Shown here piece by piece: positions 2,837 through 60,380 of a DNA stretch of 64,000 nucleotides (positions are counted from its first letter, which is position 1; every line of letters starts with the position of its first letter). Source of the stretch: a phage; sequence record OZ336096.1; one strand, written 5' to 3'. The position numbers were made by a program, and so were the translations under genes. The notes under the pieces are model-generated. The model was not told the origin of the DNA. It saw nothing but the letters and a program-made list of their open reading frames with translations, and ran no database searches.

Positions 2837-3011
2837 TCAATGAATCTATGTTTGTAGCTCTAACCTTTTCACGTTCATCGTTAAGATAATCATCAAGAGC
2901 CTTTTCAATCTGTGAATCATCTTGACAGATAACTGTAAAGACTGTAAAGCCGTCTGTATCGTCAATTATCTTACCATAACCGCTTCTGGGATGTAACTTT
3001 TTAAGAGCCAT
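2799..3011 (-). CDS. hypothetical protein
   Basis: 70 aa ORF; overlaps the upstream end of the HTH gene by ~38 nt. Confidence 0.3.
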   Translation of the reverse strand: MALKKLHPRSGYGKIIDDTDGFTVFTVICQDDSQIEKALDDYLNDEREKVRATNIDSLIDASRKRKKKDE

Positions 3012-3012
3012 A

Positions 3013-3396
3013 TTAGATACCTGTACAGCTTCTGTTTTCTAAGAAATACTCAACACCATACATAGCTTTTTGCATCAAATCTTCTTTAAACTGGATACGA
3101 TGATTGAGCATAGCCTGTACATCAATATCATCATGGTGTTTCTCTTTAATATTTGCAGATTGCAGGAAATACTCTGCAAGAACACGATATTGATAGTCAG
3201 TAACCTTATCAGTCATCTCTGTTAAAGACTCTTCAGAGATTGGTTTAAGTAACTCACCATTAGCCAGAGCAACACCTTTTACAATCTGGCAAGTGTCTTC
3301 TGGAACACCTGATAAGTCCACATTTGGAAGTTCTGTTGCATTGACTGGTAAATTCATTGCCATAACCATTGCAGCAGCTAATAAAATCTTTTTCAT
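3013..3396 (-). CDS. secreted/periplasmic protein (hypothetical)
   Basis: 127 aa; N-terminal signal-peptide-like MKKILLAAAMVMAMNLPVNA. Confidence 0.5.
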   Translation of the reverse strand: MKKILLAAAMVMAMNLPVNATELPNVDLSGVPEDTCQIVKGVALANGELLKPISEESLTEMTDKVTDYQYRVLAEYFLQSANIKEKHHDDIDVQAMLNHRIQFKEDLMQKAMYGVEYFLENRSCTGI

Positions 3397-6895: not shown

Positions 6896-7160
6896 TACAT
6901 CTGGTCAATACACTCGCAAGGTGTACCAGTTCTCTTATGAACTTCTCCGCATTTCTACGGAGTGTCGGACTATATCACGTAGTAGTAATACTACCGTTGC
7001 ACTTGGGAATGGTCATTAGCTTACCACCCTACTCTACTCAGTTCATACATTAAGTATGCTTTTCGATAGTCTCTGAACGTTCCTCTTAAGAGGCTTCGCT
7101 GCTGATTACCATATCTTTTAAGACTTAGGCTTCCAGCAATTCACAACGTTTTACATGCGC
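6896..7160 (-). other. intervening sequence in DNA polymerase gene, putative small ORF-less group I intron (boundaries approximate)
   Basis: Upstream ORF stops at 7125 just after ..RKKSKNGIYAS (start of motif B); motif resumes at ~6898; RNA-sense sequence has GATATAGTCCGACACTCCGTAGAAATGCGGAG resembling the P9 region of the nrdD intron. Confidence 0.5.
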
Positions 7161-9308
7161 CACTGACGCATAGATGCCATTTTTGCTCTTCTTACGACCT
7201 TTTGTAATCTCGTGAAGAAGTTCCTCATCCTGTGTCTCCCTACAACGAACAATATCTTCTTCCTTGTTCAGACCAAAGTAAATACTGTTCAGTGTATGCG
7301 CATCAGTCCCTGTGTAGACTTCATAGAGGTCGTTCTCAGCATCATAACGAAGATACTTGTCAGTTTCTGGATTAAGATACTTATCGAGATGCTTGCAATA
7401 GTATCTTCCATCCTCTTGCTTAGTGAACTCTACTGACTCTTTACCCTCAGTTACTGCTTTAGTGAAGTCTTCATCACCCATAAAGTTACAAAGAAGAACT
7501 AGCTGGGCTGAGTTCTGGTCAACGGAAACGATGTTAGTCCCCTCCTCACAAATCCACACCTCCCTCATAGGTGCTCCATAGACAGCAGCACCAGACGGTA
7601 CGTTTACAATACCATATTGCGTCATACGTCCAGTTGAAGTACCAAACACCATTGCACCAGCACTAAGGCGACCATCTGGACGAATCTGGTTCAACCAACC
7701 TTTTTCATCATCCTTTGAGTTCTCAATAGTCCTGCGTCGGTGCATCAAAGTATAGTACTTAGCAATCTTCTGTCCAAGCTCACCTTCAATCGTATCATAA
7801 GATGATTCAGTAAGTTTTGGTGAAGTACGGATTAAGCAAGGCTCAAGCAAATCTGTGTACTTCTTCACAGACCAGTTATGTTCAATGTACTGGACACCTT
7901 CATGTTCAACATAACTCAAGCCGCACCGTTCAACCATCTCCTGCCACTTAGGATGCTTTGTAATCATCTTTTTGTTGTCTTTGAAACGACAAACTTTGAC
8001 AGGGCGACCATCTGAATCTTTCTTGTAGTTCCAGTCATCTGGAATCCAGCCAACTGATTTCAAGTAGTCTTTAACAACTGCTACTTGAGTCATACGAGAA
8101 ACTTCAAACTCAATTGGTGTATATGGTGCATCAATCAATCCTGTGTAGCGACTTGACTCCAGTCCAAAGTGGTTAACAACATGACTGTTATAGTACTTCA
8201 CAGTTTTAACTGTTTTTACTGGCTTCCAGTCTTTGCATTTCTTACCAATCTTTGCGTTCAACTCATTGCAAATTGCACGAGCATCCTTCATTGCTACAAA
8301 ACCCTCCTTGTACTCTTCACCAGTTACAGAGTTGGTTGGCGTATAGCAATTTCTCTTTTCAATGTTAAAAATCTTTGTAGTTGGCTTACCAAATGGTTTG
8401 ATTTCGTATGTCTGCATCTCACCGTTACGTACCTGCTGACGATACTTTGTCTTAGGGTACTTGGTAATCCTCTTCAGTCCATCTGCATGACCAAATGTTT
8501 CAACATACTCATTCCAAGCTTTTGCAAACTCTTCTCCAGTGACTTTACCTTTGGTCTTAATAGTTGGAGGAAGATGTGGTTCAACCTCTGAAGCAAGCTC
8601 ATTAGTCAACTTGTCAAGTTCCTTTACATGGAACTCCATAAGTTCTTTATCAGCTTTCCAACCATTGATAGCTTGTTGACTCATCCAGAAAGATGTTTCT
8701 TTAGCTCGCATGTAGGTTTCATAAGTGTCTATGCCACACTTCTTAAGCTTGAGATACTCATTATCAAGTGCCCGTTTAGTTTTGGCGTTAATACGGATAT
8801 CTTCTACAACACGAGTGAAGATTTCTGCATTCCACACACCCCAATGTTCAATCTCTGGTTTACGAACACCAACACGAGCACCCCATGCAGCCAAACCATG
8901 AGCACCTTTATAACCCTTTGGAGTTGGTCTATCCATCCACTGAACACGAGACTGGATAAGAGAATCCTGAAAGAAGTTACTCCACGGTTTACACTTTGGA
9001 TTATCAAAGTTCCATAAATCAGGTGCAATGTGGTTGAAAACCCACCAGTCATAACCGAGACCATTATGGATGCAAAGACGTTTTGCCTTTAACGCAAACT
9101 CAACACCTTCACGCAAACCACCCTTAATGTACTTGGTATACTTGTGACCGAGGATAGGCTCGTCTGTAAAGACCCATACAGGTGGCTCTTCATCGTCAGA
9201 TTTATAGTCTGCAAAGGCCATTACGTGAACTTTAGTGAACTCAAGGAGTAAACCATCAGTTTCTGTATCACCAACCAAATGTAAGTTTTTAAAATCTACG
9301 TTTTCCAT
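7125..9308 (-). CDS. DNA polymerase (family A) with 3'-5' exonuclease, N-terminal exon/fragment
   Basis: Exo I motif LVGDTETDGLL; motif A VSVDQNSAQLVLL; GTDAHTLNSIYFG; start chosen at MENVDF (9308) with GAGGGA RBS; ORF track gives 7125-9338. Confidence 0.8.
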   Translation of the reverse strand: MENVDFKNLHLVGDTETDGLLLEFTKVHVMAFADYKSDDEEPPVWVFTDEPILGHKYTKYIKGGLREGVEFALKAKRLCIHNGLGYDWWVFNHIAPDLWNFDNPKCKPWSNFFQDSLIQSRVQWMDRPTPKGYKGAHGLAAWGARVGVRKPEIEHWGVWNAEIFTRVVEDIRINAKTKRALDNEYLKLKKCGIDTYETYMRAKETSFWMSQQAINGWKADKELMEFHVKELDKLTNELASEVEPHLPPTIKTKGKVTGEEFAKAWNEYVETFGHADGLKRITKYPKTKYRQQVRNGEMQTYEIKPFGKPTTKIFNIEKRNCYTPTNSVTGEEYKEGFVAMKDARAICNELNAKIGKKCKDWKPVKTVKTVKYYNSHVVNHFGLESSRYTGLIDAPYTPIEFEVSRMTQVAVVKDYLKSVGWIPDDWNYKKDSDGRPVKVCRFKDNKKMITKHPKWQEMVERCGLSYVEHEGVQYIEHNWSVKKYTDLLEPCLIRTSPKLTESSYDTIEGELGQKIAKYYTLMHRRRTIENSKDDEKGWLNQIRPDGRLSAGAMVFGTSTGRMTQYGIVNVPSGAAVYGAPMREVWICEEGTNIVSVDQNSAQLVLLCNFMGDEDFTKAVTEGKESVEFTKQEDGRYYCKHLDKYLNPETDKYLRYDAENDLYEVYTGTDAHTLNSIYFGLNKEEDIVRCRETQDEELLHEITKGRKKSKNGIYASVAHVKRCELLEA

Positions 9309-56571: not shown

Positions 56572-56943
56572 ATGAAAAACAGAACAAACAAAGGCCAGTT
56601 TAAAAAAGGCCAGTCTGGGAACCCATCTGGAAGACCAAAAGGCTCTCGTAACAAAAGCTCACTCGTAAAAGCTCAACTGACCATTGATAATTCTGCTGAG
56701 TTTGCTGCAAAGTTGTTTGAGGCGATTGTTACAAGGGACGCTGCTAAGCTTGCAGAGTTCGGTTTGACGACTGACGATGTAAACCTGAAGTCGATGATGG
56801 AAGCTGGTAAAACTATCATGACCCACTCAGCAGGTGAGATGAAAGCGATTGCAGCAGACACTAAGAAGACCCCTGATAATGGTGGTCAGTCTCAGACAGA
56901 TAACAAACCAACGTTCTCTGCTGTAGCGACTCTCAAAAAATAA
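56572..56943 (+). CDS. hypothetical protein
   Basis: 123 aa; N-terminal basic motif FKKGQSGNPSGRPKGSRN. Confidence 0.45.
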   Translation: MKNRTNKGQFKKGQSGNPSGRPKGSRNKSSLVKAQLTIDNSAEFAAKLFEAIVTRDAAKLAEFGLTTDDVNLKSMMEAGKTIMTHSAGEMKAIAADTKKTPDNGGQSQTDNKPTFSAVATLKK

Positions 56944-57024: not shown

Positions 57025-58440
57025 ATGAGCGAATTATTTAAACATGCGCACCTTCATGCAGGTCGAACTGAAAATGGTGCTGTAAACCATACTTCATCAA
57101 TGTCTGCTCTTGTAGACTTTTACAAAGCTGCTGGTTCAAGCCGTAGCAACGTAGAAATCTTACCAGACCTGTTCTACAAAGCTTTGCGTGAAGATGTTGA
57201 TGTTGCAGTTCGTATTTTGCTTCACATGCGAGATGTACGAGAAGGTATGGGTGAGCGTAAAGCCTTCAGAACTGTTTTACTTCAAGCAATCGAAGATAAA
57301 GTTTTAGAGCCTACACAGGTTCTTCGTATTATGGATAAGATTGCAGAACTCGGTCGTTTTGATGACTTCAAAATCTTCGTGGGTACTCGTTTCGAGACAG
57401 ATGCCTTCAAGCATTTAGAAGCAGCATTACTAGACCCTGCAACAGCAGGTTTGGCAGCTAAGTGGTTACCACGAGTCAAACCACGTCATAAGCAGTTTGT
57501 AAAACGTTTCTGTAAGTTTGCCAACTTGAGTGAGAAAGAGTACCGCACACTGTTGTCTGCACTATCTGATACAGTTGAGCAAAAAATCTCTGCTAATGAT
57601 TTTGGTAAGATTGACTACAGCAAGATTCCTTCACTTGCTGCTGCACGTTACCAGAAGCTGTTTAACCGCAAGGATGGAGAACGCTACAAAGCTTACATTG
57701 AGTCCTTATCAAAGGGTGAGACTAAGATTAATGCTGGTGCTGTTTACCCATACGATGTGATTAAATCTGTTAAGCATGGTAATGCAGATGTTGCTAATGA
57801 GCAGTGGAAAGCACTACCAAACTGGATGGCAGAGGGTGAAAACATCTTGTGTATGACTGATGTTTCAGGCTCAATGTCTTGGGTGAATCTTGGTTCAATC
57901 ACCGCCCTTGATATTGGTGTATCACTTGCCTTGTATGTAGCAGAACGTAATACAGGTTGCTTTAAGGATGAGTTAATGGTTTATTCAACAAACCCTTACT
58001 TCATCGAACTGAGTGGTGATTTACGAAACCGTCATCGTCAGGTGATGCGACATGTTGAATATGGCTCAACTAACTTACAAGCAGCTTTTGACCGCATTCT
58101 TGAGACAGGTAAAAGAAATAACTTGACTCAGAAAGATATGCCAAGTAAGCTTATCATCTTCTCCGATATGGAGTTCAATCAGGTTGATGGAGCTAACGGT
58201 CGTACAAACTTTGAAGCAATTCAGAGTAAGTACAAAAAAGCTGGATATGAGATGCCACAACTGGTATTCTGGTACTTAGCAAACCGTAATGGTACTTGCG
58301 AAGTGTCTGTTAAGGATAACGGTGTAGCAATGGTATCTGGTTTCTCTCCAGCCACTTTAAAAGCTCTGCTTGGTGGTGAGAAGTTTGACCCAATCAGCGT
58401 AATGCTCAAAGCAGTAATGATTGACCGTTATATCTGGTAA
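57025..58440 (+). CDS. von Willebrand factor A domain protein with N-terminal helical domain (possibly Ro60/TROVE-like)
   Basis: 471 aa; MIDAS-like DVSGSM in ILCMTDVSGSMSW and downstream vWA-like pattern; helical N-terminal ~270 aa. Confidence 0.5.
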   Translation: MSELFKHAHLHAGRTENGAVNHTSSMSALVDFYKAAGSSRSNVEILPDLFYKALREDVDVAVRILLHMRDVREGMGERKAFRTVLLQAIEDKVLEPTQVLRIMDKIAELGRFDDFKIFVGTRFETDAFKHLEAALLDPATAGLAAKWLPRVKPRHKQFVKRFCKFANLSEKEYRTLLSALSDTVEQKISANDFGKIDYSKIPSLAAARYQKLFNRKDGERYKAYIESLSKGETKINAGAVYPYDVIKSVKHGNADVANEQWKALPNWMAEGENILCMTDVSGSMSWVNLGSITALDIGVSLALYVAERNTGCFKDELMVYSTNPYFIELSGDLRNRHRQVMRHVEYGSTNLQAAFDRILETGKRNNLTQKDMPSKLIIFSDMEFNQVDGANGRTNFEAIQSKYKKAGYEMPQLVFWYLANRNGTCEVSVKDNGVAMVSGFSPATLKALLGGEKFDPISVMLKAVMIDRYIW

Positions 58441-58458: not shown

Positions 58459-58487
58459 TTGACAATGTGTTTGATACCCTTTAATAT
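58459..58487 (+). promoter_or_regulatory. sigma70-like promoter upstream of tRNA cluster
   Basis: TTGACA - 17 nt - TAATAT; weaker second candidate at 58550-58578. Confidence 0.45.
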
Positions 58488-58605
58488 GTTCTACATAGAA
58501 ACGAAACGAGAGCTTTTCTAAGATACTGAAAAATATTTTAAAAAAGTTCTTGACAATCACTAAAAAATAATGTTAAAGTGGTTACATAGAGTTTGAAAAG
58601 TTTAT

Positions 58606-58767: not shown

Positions 58768-58858
58768 GTTTTGACAGAAGACCAATTGCAGCAAACTTAA
58801 TCTTATTCATCTGACACGAAATCGGACAAAGAAGAGATTTGGTCTGGTCATTAAGAAT

Positions 58859-58935: not shown

Positions 58936-59012
58936 ATTTTGCAGAAGACCGTATTCAGCAACAAAATACTTTTTGCGGATAAAAGAAAAAACACGGTCTG
59001 GCAATGTATTAA

Positions 59013-59270: not shown

Positions 59271-59493
59271 AATTATAATAAGTATTTCAAGATGATGTTT
59301 TGAGAGGGCTATTTAGCCCCTCCCTTAAAGAGTTCTTACGAGTATTCTTTAAAGGAGCAGAAGACCAAATTCAGCAAGTACGTATGATATTTTCAAGCCA
59401 ATTTAATTTTGAAAAATTTAAAACTTGGTCTGGCTCAACAGATTTACAGAAGACCGTTTACAGCAAAACTTAAACAATCTATTTCTCCGGTAA

Positions 59494-59556
59494 AGAAAAG
59501 GCGAAGGTTCGATTCCTTCACTCGGCAGATGTCGAGTTGGTGTAATGGTAGCACTT
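59494..59556 (+). pseudogene. tRNA-like halves in permuted order (3' half then 5' half)
   Basis: GGCGAAGGTTCGATTCCTTCACTCGGCAG (T-arm + 3' acceptor) immediately followed by GTCGAGTTGGTGTAATGGTAGCAC (5' acceptor + D-arm); the two acceptor strands are complementary to each other. Confidence 0.35.
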
Positions 59557-59727
59557 AAGATGATAAACAACGGTCTGGTAATTATCTTTGTAGATAAGTT
59601 ATTAAGCTTACCTGTGAGTATGCGACCACAAAGGGTGAAAGGGTAAATTCTAGATTTAAACCCAACAAGGCACATCGCTACAGACCTTAAGCAAGTCTGG
59701 GTAGCTTATCTACAAAGATAATTTAAT

Positions 59728-59961: not shown

Positions 59962-60298
59962 ATTTCAATAAAGTTGTTGACATTGAGATGTGACCACTTT
60001 TTAGTAACTAAAATACTTCATAATATGTATAATTCAAACACCAATACATGAGCGTTAGACGTAACACAATGTGGGGAAATTTGTTGTACATATTCTGAAT
60101 AGTTTTCGTTGCGTAGCGTCTATTTTGCAAATTTAAAATAAATGCAAACGACAATGTTTTTCTGGCAGTAGCTTGATAGGCTAAACACCAGTGAGGTCTT
60201 CCAATCCCTCATCAAAGAATTTGGCGTACTAGCCCACGGTATGATTAATAAAGTGGGCATCTTTAAGGGCTTTCTAAGAGAGTCTTTAAAGATAATTA

Positions 60299-60380
60299 CG
60301 GGGCGTATCTCAGCTGTCTTCTAAACAGCCGTTAACCGAGTAAGTGGAGTATGCGGGTTCGAGTCCTGCCGCCTCGACCA
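60299..60380 (+). tRNA. atypical tRNA-like gene, possibly tRNA-Arg (UCU)
   Basis: Acceptor CGGGGCG/CGCCTCG + ACCA, T-loop GGTTCGAGTCC, perfect anticodon hairpin GCTGT-CTTCTAA-ACAGC, but no recognisable D-arm and a long segment after the anticodon arm. Confidence 0.35.

Follow-up and report, generated by a model that had tools for sequence, protein, structure and literature searches.

The stretch of phage DNA analysed here (record OZ336096.1; 64,000 nucleotides (nt), hereafter the window) contains a cluster of 24 tRNA genes, all called on the plus strand by ARAGORN, and the subject of this report is a unit of about 138 nt within that cluster, U4, in which parts of a tRNA lie in permuted order inside a helix formed by two flanking sequence boxes. 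Three shorter units bearing the same boxes, U1, U2 and U3, lie upstream in the same region, and they are preceded on the same strand by a gene for a 471-amino acid (aa) protein with a predicted Ro60-like fold, whose end is separated from the first tRNA by ~165 nt, from U1 by ~330 nt and from U4 by ~1.0 kb. The window comes from a Felix O1-like phage, and its tRNA region matches 301 records and is 99.7% identical to that of Felixounavirus genomes. The extent and parts of U4, taken from its minimum free energy (MFE) fold, from a consensus fold and pair counts across 7 genomes and from 253 phage records, are as follows.

59444 to 59581, plus strand: U4, the box unit of ~138 nt that encloses the tRNA halves.
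59444 to 59466, plus strand: 5' box of U4, with outer strand UUAC (59444-47), loop AGA (59448-50), inner strand AGACCGU (59451-57) and single-stranded UUACAGCAA (59458-66).
59482 to 59498, plus strand: variable-arm-like hairpin UUUCU-CCGGUAA-AGAAA ('V' in YrlA terms), with a 5-bp stem and a 7-nt loop.
59503 to 59519, plus strand: T arm GAAGG-UUCGAUU-CCUUC, canonical, in both the MFE and the consensus fold.
59520 to 59537, plus strand: closed acceptor-like stem ACUCGGC/GUCGAGU of 7 bp with one G-U pair (59525-59532) and the linker A-GAU (59527-59530).
59538 to 59554, plus strand: U8-G9 (59538-59539) followed by a canonical D arm, GUGU-AAUGGUA-GCAC (59540-59554).
59570 to 59581, plus strand: 3' box of U4, with inner strand ACGGUCU (59570-76), unpaired G (59577) and outer strand GUAA (59578-81).

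In the MFE fold these parts follow one another, from the outside in, as the terminal box helix, the conserved UUACAGCAA, the variable-arm hairpin, the T arm, the closed acceptor stem and the D arm. A first-pass annotation made from the letters had described a T arm and 3' acceptor strand followed directly by a 5' acceptor strand and D arm, that is, tRNA halves in permuted order within a box-flanked spacer, and had listed a nonstandard tRNA among its readings. The fold bears this out: 59503-59526 holds the T arm together with the 3' acceptor strand (ACUCGGC, 59520-59526), 59531-59554 holds the 5' acceptor strand (GUCGAGU, 59531-59537) and the D arm, the acceptor strands form 7 bp between them, including the single G-U that had been noted, and the whole lies inside the box helix. 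The bounds given for the element need correction, its start at 59494 lying in the 3' strand of the upstream hairpin and the T-arm region starting at 59500. The remark that no anticodon arm was evident is right for the anticodon position, where there is none, but it passes over the 5-bp/7-nt hairpin at 59482-59498, which falls in the variable-arm position once U4 is rotated into tRNA order. In tRNA terms, the place of the anticodon stem is taken by the open box helix.

The universal elbow and core nucleotides of tRNA are all present in U4 (U8, A14, G18, G19, A21, G53, U54, U55, C56, A58 and C61). Neither ARAGORN nor Rfam called a tRNA at 59494-59556, and the ARAGORN tmRNA search was also empty, with the upstream hairpin and T arm (59470-59520) giving a sub-threshold Rfam tRNA match of 22 bits. 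When U4 was rotated into tRNA order and supplied with a generic anticodon arm, ARAGORN drew a class II cloverleaf, which we count as weak support because two of five controls with a shuffled 5' half passed as well. No close paralog of either half of U4 was found among the phage's 24 tRNAs.

U4 was found in 253 phage records, with at least 80% of its length covered in 246, and U1-U4 are syntenic in Felixounavirus, Suspvirus and Mooglevirus. In an alignment of 7 genomes, standard pairs make up 98.6% of the pair cells of U4, compared with 39-48% when the partners are slid by one to three columns, whilst its covariation score was reached by none of 500 shuffles. The boxes, T arm and D arm are nearly invariant across the 7 genomes, the 5' box differing only by one C-to-U change that gives a G-U pair. 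The acceptor stem is 100% paired and three of its seven pairs are changed on both sides, giving the versions ACUCGGC/GUCGAGU, ACACGU/GCGUGU and ACCCUUC/GAAGGGU. The second of these, of 6 bp, is capped by a UACG tetraloop in the SUSP2 clade (SUSP2, Sf13 and ESh22), and the third occurs in the Moogle clade (Citrobacter phages Moogle and HP1), where the linker G-CCA-AACA has the form of a discriminator followed by an encoded CCA. These linkers suggest that some lineages open the acceptor stem by tRNA-type processing and that others keep it closed, the tetraloop-capped SUSP2 version probably staying closed. The loop of the variable-arm hairpin differs in sequence and length among relatives (CCGGUAA, CGGUAA, CUGGUAA, CUAUAAA and ACUUUCA, with a 6-nt loop in Felix O1), and this lack of conservation rules it out as an anticodon loop.

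The boxes that enclose U4 recur in three further units of the cluster.

58772 to 58850, plus strand: U1, between tRNA-Glu and tRNA-Met, with outer helix UGAC/GUCA, loop AGA/G, inner helix AGACCAA/UUGGUCU and motif UUGCAGCAA.
58939 to 59004, plus strand: U2, between tRNA-Met and tRNA-Asn, with outer helix UUGC/GCAA, inner helix AGACCGU/ACGGUCU and motif AUUCAGCAA.
59355 to 59436, plus strand: U3, with outer helix GAGC/GCUC, inner helix AGACCAA/UUGGUCU and motif AUUCAGCAA.

All four units share, on the plus strand, a 5' box C-AGA-AGACC-NN-NUNCAGCAA and a 3' box NN-GGUCU-G-G, and all four fold into a 4-bp outer helix, an asymmetric loop (AGA versus G) and a 7-bp inner helix followed by the single-stranded NUNCAGCAA. 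The outer helices covary among the four paralogous units (UGAC/GUCA, UUGC/GCAA, GAGC/GCUC and UUAC/GUAA), as do two positions of the inner helix (GU/AC or AA/UU). The box module can be described as a 7-bp helix starting with A-U and G-C, flanked by unpaired purines and with NUNCAGCAA directly 3' of its 5' strand. The interiors of U1-U3 are short and variable and hold little beyond this module, and U1 and U2 occupy their inter-tRNA spacers almost exactly. Rfam 15 holds no family for the module. Two known motifs were set aside by inspection: a K-turn, the box having no tandem G-A pairs, and the vertebrate Ro-binding helix (GGUCCGA/UUGACC), the bulge lying on the opposite strand compared with the Y RNAs.

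The gene upstream of these units has the following layout.

57025 to 58440, plus strand: gene for the 471-aa Ro60-like protein, with an N-terminal helical repeat region (Pfam DUF2828) and a C-terminal vWA domain with a MIDAS (metal ion-dependent adhesion site; DUF7788, DVSGSMS).

In this open reading frame (ORF), which in Felix O1 is ORF86 (AAQ14774.1), Pfam finds only DUF2828 and DUF7788, and PHROGs labels the protein's family 'RNA-binding protein'. The DxSxS MIDAS motif of the C-terminal half (DVSGSMS) is invariant in 50 homologues. An AlphaFold2 model computed from these 50 homologues reached a predicted local distance difference test score (pLDDT) of 89 and a predicted template modelling score (pTM) of 0.89, and when its full length was compared with the PDB using Foldseek the top 11 matches were all Ro60 structures (E 1e-7 to 6e-6), among them Xenopus Ro60, Deinococcus Rsr and the Ro60 of Thermus phage phiLo, with only isolated vWA domains below them. 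The predicted model has the architecture of Ro60/TROVE proteins, a helical-repeat ring with a C-terminal vWA domain carrying a MIDAS, and on the strength of this model the 471-aa gene product is a divergent Ro60-like protein. The family combining DUF2828 and DUF7788 is large, with more than 3,000 protein clusters in one search, in phages and many bacterial phyla, and Pfam records DUF2828 in bacteria, phages and eukaryotes. A Listeria phage paper has raised the Ro60 idea on HHpred evidence, and in the literature searched we found no description of a Y-RNA-like RNA or a Ro60-like gene for Felix O1-like phages or for DUF2828.

Linkage between the box module and this gene was followed in 80 IMG/VR loci with homologues of the protein, 75 of them only 39-48% identical. 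A strict signature (A, G-N5, three bases, C[ACU]GCA[ACU], the reverse complement of the helix, UG) matched 69 times on the gene strand and twice on the opposite strand, block shuffles giving 2.8 matches on average; of the 69, 57 lie within 700 nt of the gene, and dozens of different helices are represented. A relaxed descriptor allowing one mismatch in CAGCAA and any 6-bp stem performed no better than shuffles (528 matches for the gene strand and 314 for its opposite, compared with 464 in shuffles). A covariance model, R1, was then built from 30 short modules of distant phages only, with no Felix-like sequence. Its matches in the window fix a common register, N-A-[A-G-N5]-NUNCAGCAA...[N5-C-U]-G, which is also the register of the 5' box of U4. 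On both strands of the window R1 found U2 (34.6 bits, E 1.8e-5), U3 (28.4 bits, E 4.6e-4) and U1 (28.3 bits, E 4.8e-4) and nothing else significant, these E-values being rough owing to a shortened calibration. Across 79 loci (75 from IMG/VR and four others) all 65 of its matches at E <=0.05 lie on the gene strand, in 47 loci, and in 80 loci from bacterial assemblies, where the protein is 33-43% identical, 48 of 48 matches lie on the gene strand, mostly 0-600 nt upstream of the gene.

The training modules of R1 were picked by a descriptor that demands pairing, and for that reason we take the evidence for a family from the strand bias, the position by the gene, the matches outside the training set and a natural control, and not from pair counts in the training set. 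The control is Pectobacterium phage Wc4-1, which retains the syntenic DUF5681 gene and the tRNA cluster; no Ro60-like gene was found anywhere in it (best tblastn E 0.06, compared with 1e-168 for the positive control), and no module in 92 kb. In the units of Yersinia phage P778 the motif is retained while each strand of the helix has changed (GGACUGU/ACAGUCC, GGAUUC/GAAUCC and GGACUC/GAGUCC). Amongst 60 distant loci, each reaching up to 3 kb either side, tRNAs lie beside the gene in 17 and none was called in the other 43. Minimal modules of 32-40 nt, whose hairpin loop is essentially CAGCAA itself, were also seen in several loci (L164 2955-2987, L167 1765-1796, L172 2860-2891, and L205, L213, L221, L225 and L237 at ~2905-2945), with 11-60 nt between their ends and the Ro60-like start codon.

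The tRNA-like interior of U4 also has counterparts in distant phages, where the box helix of long modules encloses a T arm, then a closed stem of 3-8 bp, then a D arm (for example in loci L184, L233, L165, L171 and L163). The D arm of L171 is nearly identical to that of U4 (GUGUAACGGUAGCAC). Two of these modules match the Rfam YrlA family (RF02553) below its gathering threshold of 69 bits, L184 with 39.2 bits (E 4e-5) and L233 with 28.7 bits over the full model length (E 0.047). A further module, L209 (2759-2854), has its arms in normal tRNA order (D, an anticodon-like arm with a 5-bp stem and 7-nt loop, then T) with the box helix in place of the acceptor stem, a permutation that is the reverse of that in U4; ARAGORN calls it tRNA-Asn(att) and it scores 41 bits with the Rfam tRNA model. 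The arm orientation differs between L209 and U4, as it does between D. radiodurans Yrn1 and YrlA.

YrlA, which occurs in Salmonella, Mycobacterium and some phages, is a Y RNA that mimics tRNA; it is always found beside a Ro60 gene, and its parts run in the order 5' motif, V, T, closed acceptor stem and D (Chen et al., 2014, PMC4201824). Only the M. smegmatis YrlA has an acceptor stem of 7 bp, and in vivo this RNA is a substrate for RNase P cleavage and for CCA addition. U4 resembles YrlA in having a terminal stem with a putative protein-binding module, followed by V, T arm, closed acceptor stem and D arm, in keeping the tertiary nucleotides of tRNA, and in being accompanied by shorter units, here U1-U3, as YrlA is by YrlB-like partners; the gene beside it on the same strand has a predicted Ro60 fold; its 7-bp acceptor stem is like that of the M. 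smegmatis RNA. It differs from YrlA in its terminal module, which is an A/G-flanked helix plus NUNCAGCAA instead of GNCGAAN0-1G, in its partner, a DUF2828+DUF7788 protein and not a Pfam TROVE protein, and in that U1-U4 are embedded in a tRNA gene cluster. The phage Y-RNA-like genes in the literature searched lie only beside canonical Ro60 genes (mycobacteriophages, CcrColossus, Bacillus phage G and Thermus phiLo). The Yrl1 and Yrl2 RNAs of phiLo (PMC12135203) offer a parallel in which a phage Ro60-type ring protein, predicted in our case, has small RNAs alongside; unlike U4 they lack a tRNA-like domain and are defined by a CGAA placed in an internal bulge, and the proteins are only ~16% identical.

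We therefore read U4 as a probable YrlA-type, Y-RNA-like noncoding RNA, to which we give a probability of about 0.72, in which the box module would be the part for the Ro60-like ring protein and the interior would act as a tRNA mimic, both binding and function being argued from the likeness to YrlA. The reading brings together the structure and conservation of the RNA, the strand-specific co-occurrence of module and gene, their joint absence from Wc4-1 and the Ro60-like fold of the model. What is new here is a box-module RNA family of which we found no description in the literature searched, and whose putative partner is not a recognisable TROVE protein.

Expression of such RNAs could begin at two promoter-like sites between the Ro60-like gene and the first tRNA.

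58459 to 58487, plus strand: sigma-70-like promoter, 10/12 consensus matches.
58550 to 58579, plus strand: sigma-70-like promoter, 10/12 consensus matches.

The pair came from a consensus scan and is probably the start of the tRNA/box-RNA transcript, although this is suggestive only, the number of promoter-like sites in the region being not above that in shuffles. From these promoters (~58459 and ~58550) U1-U4 would be co-transcribed with the tRNAs, and they would be freed once the tRNAs on either side are cut by RNase P and the enzymes of 3' processing. The binding site of the upstream-encoded ring protein would be the box module, and the tRNA-like domain of U4 may give the particle a stable tRNA elbow for tRNA-recognising factors. 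Since the stem is 7 bp long, as in the M. smegmatis YrlA, it is plausible that RNase P cuts at 59530/59531 and that CCA is then added, and the 7-bp stem of the Moogle clade may behave likewise. By analogy with the Ro60/Y RNA/PNPase system, the particle could redirect or shield RNA decay or quality control in infection, possibly of tRNAs.

Several observations weigh against this reading. The Y RNAs known from bacteria and phages carry GNCGAAN0-1G (CGAA) as their Ro-binding motif, which is absent from the 5' part of U1-U4, and U4 of the window has no RF02553 match even at E up to 10. Searches of the 471-aa protein with Pfam for TROVE, with NCBIfam and, using phmmer and a 50-sequence profile, for PDB Ro60 gave no match, and since these sequence-level searches fail the relationship to Ro60 rests on the predicted fold. 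Some loci bear the gene with no module detected within 3-4 kb, Vibrio phage phi-pp2 for example. A Logan contig whose protein is 64% identical (L156) keeps U1-U3 only, and the Felix-like records OM386661.1 and PP068123.1 cover just 44% and 21% of U4, so that the tRNA-mimic unit appears dispensable. The minimal modules near the start codon, some only 11-17 nt from it, could be cis-regulatory or autoregulatory leaders and not free RNAs. Finally, a part for the particle in tethering or gating an exoribonuclease, or in some tRNA-related role, is drawn purely by analogy.

The boxes might instead be cis-acting processing or insulator elements of the tRNA transcript, offering sites for RNase E, RNase III or exonucleases, with the U4 domain as an extra handle for RNase P. 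The near-exact fit of U1 and U2 to their inter-tRNA spacers speaks for this, as does the location of all units on the tRNA strand and the presence of tRNAs beside the gene in the 17 of 60 distant loci. It has to contend, however, with the 43 loci in which no tRNA was called, with the position of the modules just upstream of the gene in the bacterial loci and with Wc4-1, which processes a syntenic tRNA cluster without any module; moreover, the single-stranded NUNCAGCAA and its flanking purines look like a protein recognition site and not like a generic hairpin. On this balance we regard the proposal as unlikely. Stable RNAs are known from a phage tRNA cluster: species 1 and 2 of phage T4 (rnaC and rnaD) are small RNAs encoded among tRNA genes and released by tRNA-processing enzymes, and U1-U4 are like them in being encoded among phage tRNA genes; T4 is not known to have a Ro60-like partner.

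A second possibility is that U4 is a stand-alone tRNA decoy or sponge which titrates a host tRNA-binding factor (a modification enzyme, nuclease, toxin or defence sensor reading the tRNA elbow or acceptor), that the box helix does no more than close the structure and that the neighbouring gene is unrelated. Conservation of every elbow nucleotide, the CCA encoded after the 3' acceptor strand in the Moogle clade and the location in a phage tRNA cluster would all suit a decoy. Yet in U1-U3 and at most distant loci the box module has no tRNA-like domain with it, the module accompanies the Ro60-like gene with full strand specificity, and the acceptor stem of the SUSP2 clade is closed by its tetraloop, so that this explanation, too, is one we hold to be improbable.

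Circularly permuted tRNA genes, as in Cyanidioschyzon merolae, and two-piece (permuted) tmRNA genes encode the 3' half before the 5' half with a short linker, and they yield a complete tRNA, or the tRNA-like domain of tmRNA, with a free acceptor end. U4 likewise encodes its 3' half upstream of its 5' half, and the first-pass annotation had suggested a circularly permuted tRNA. Were U4 a true gene of this kind, cut and rejoined or working in two pieces, it would take part in decoding, with the upstream hairpin supplying a GGU (Thr) anticodon. The 5-bp stem and 7-nt loop of that hairpin, the ARAGORN cloverleaf for rotated U4 and a 131-nt 'tRNA-Thr GGT' annotated here in REP6 and REP10 could be cited in favour. 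However, the hairpin sits in the variable-arm position and not in the anticodon position, where the box helix lies, its loop has C33 instead of U33, is 6 nt long in Felix O1 and is unrelated in other clades, and shuffled controls satisfied ARAGORN in two of five cases. Unlike permuted tRNA and tmRNA genes, U4 has no anticodon arm, no tag reading frame and no bulge-helix-bulge junction, and in one clade its stem is capped by the UACG tetraloop. The REP6 prediction needs a poor acceptor stem beginning inside U3 and we reject it as forced; annotations of a 'putative tRNA pseudogene' and 'tRNA-OTHER' in relatives proved to be tRNA-Tyr, not U4. The order of the parts therefore stands as described, but a decoding tRNA is very unlikely.

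Just as unlikely is the idea, also raised at first, that U4 is a rearrangement scar or pseudogene, the functionless remnant of one tRNA gene or of two reciprocally truncated copies. It would account for the failure of any tool to call a tRNA here and for the relatives that have no U4. We reject these readings because of the conservation, the covariation and the lack of a tRNA paralog: U4 persists across three genera and 246 records, its stem of 6-7 bp being maintained by compensatory substitutions, no close paralog was found among the 24 tRNAs, and the same architecture arose or was kept inside the box helices of distant phages. Lastly, that the region codes for protein on the minus strand, where an 85-aa ORF with an ATG start spans 59418-59675 and AYO145A orf047 and Felix O1 ORF94 are annotated, is the least credible suggestion of all, since indels of 1, 2, 4, 5 and 9 nt among close relatives, including a 1-nt deletion in Felix O1, are not all multiples of three and so rule the ORF out, most records annotate nothing here and the substitutions preserve RNA pairs of the plus strand.

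Other features of the neighbourhood are recorded here in their own right. Just 5' of the Ro60-like gene lies a 123-aa DUF5681 ORF (56572-56943, plus strand), syntenic in Yersinia phage P778 and in the Logan contig, and Wc4-1 keeps this gene (49% identity) beside its tRNA cluster with no Ro60-like gene. In P778 (~7010-7140 and 7234-7385 of locus L155) and Wc4-1 (2923-3043 of locus L154), the interval between tRNA-Ala and tRNA-Lys, which is the U3/U4 site in Felix-like phages, holds elements resembling tRNAs, whose acceptor stem and T arm are good but which have 60-130 nt extra inside and are not called by ARAGORN. Directly 3' of U4, a second strongly structured stretch (59582-59727, plus strand) adopts a multibranch fold closed by a 22-bp stem (UUAUCUUUGUAGAUAAG... 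/ ...CUUAUCUACAAAGAUAA), with an MFE of -46.4 kcal/mol (z = -5.5; none of 200 shuffles as stable) and no Rfam match. Within it a hairpin at 59684-59705, CAGAC-CUUAAGCAA-GUCUG, keeps its loop with compensatory stems in Wc4-1 (CCAUC-CUUAAGCAA-GAUGG) and in P778 (AAGUC-CCUUAGCAA-GACUU), and as Wc4-1 has no Ro60-like gene this structure also occurs in a phage lacking it. Further downstream, 60108-60377 (plus strand) scores weakly and below threshold with the Rfam models for tmRNA (a partial match of 16.3 bits) and, at 60298-60377, for tRNA-Sec (23.3 bits); relatives annotate tRNA-Arg(TCT) near here, for which the ARAGORN call is absent in the window.

Beyond phages and bacteria, the sole Rfam near-match of the boxes was between U2 (58947-59000) and Dicty_Class_I_RNA (RF01414), at 24 bits and hence below the gathering threshold of 41.5 bits. 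The four short modules of a distant locus (L222) gave no RF01414 match at E up to 10, and the link to Dictyostelium therefore rests on the signature and not on the model. Class I RNAs are 42-65 nt long, with their ends joined by a 6-bp stem whose first G is invariant, the motif CCUUACAGCAA by the 5' strand, a variable interior and conserved ends AAG and CUGU, and are described as 'unique to dictyostelids' (Kjellin et al., 2021, PMC7919456). They have DUSE promoters and are transcribed independently, and their known direct binder is the RRM protein Rnp1A/CIBP. A stem with a first G and UUACAGCAA is likewise present in U4 and in the module family, and the terminal signature is nearly identical, with (C/A)UU(A/G)CAGCAA after the 5' strand, an interior of ~30-45 nt and a 3' end ...C-UG, so that GUUGAC-CUUACAGCAA...GUCAAC-UG of Class I can be set against (A)AG-N5-NUNCAGCAA...N5-C-UG of the phages. 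The Class I RNAs differ in having one extra nucleotide between the stem and CAGCAA, and no tRNA-like versions of them comparable to U4 have been described; the phage modules differ from them in their sequence context, which is without DUSE and reads GA-AG...CU-GG for the units of the window and AA-AG...CU-G(U/A) for those of distant phages. One of four proteins pulled down with DdR-21, a Class I RNA, is DDB_G0281243, annotated 'function unknown' (10.1101/2020.04.05.026054).

It is tempting, if doubtful, to suppose that Ro60-like proteins have a second large branch, those with DUF2828 and DUF7788, whose cognate RNA is the box module, (A)A-G-N5 / NUNCAGCAA / ...N5-C-UG, and that the Dictyostelium Class I RNAs are the eukaryotic members of this RNA family. 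If this tentative extension were true, the Class I RNAs would be Y-RNA-like partners of a Ro60-like protein, and DDB_G0281243 or another dictyostelid protein would be predicted to be of the DUF2828 type. The resemblance provides a testable lead on abundant RNAs without an established function.

If U4 is indeed a YrlA-type RNA, the Felix O1-like phages, classic typing and therapy phages of Salmonella and E. coli with hundreds of sequenced genomes, would carry within their tRNA cluster an unannotated ribonucleoprotein system in which a Ro60-like ring protein is joined by four Y-RNA-like RNAs, including one tRNA mimic. A DUF family of more than 3,000 clusters gains a predicted Ro60-like fold and a candidate RNA partner, and Ro60/Y-RNA biology would reach well past the recognisable TROVE proteins. 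These phages would then offer a tractable system in which the function of such particles may be approached, for example in the control of RNA decay, in tRNA surveillance or in counter-defence.

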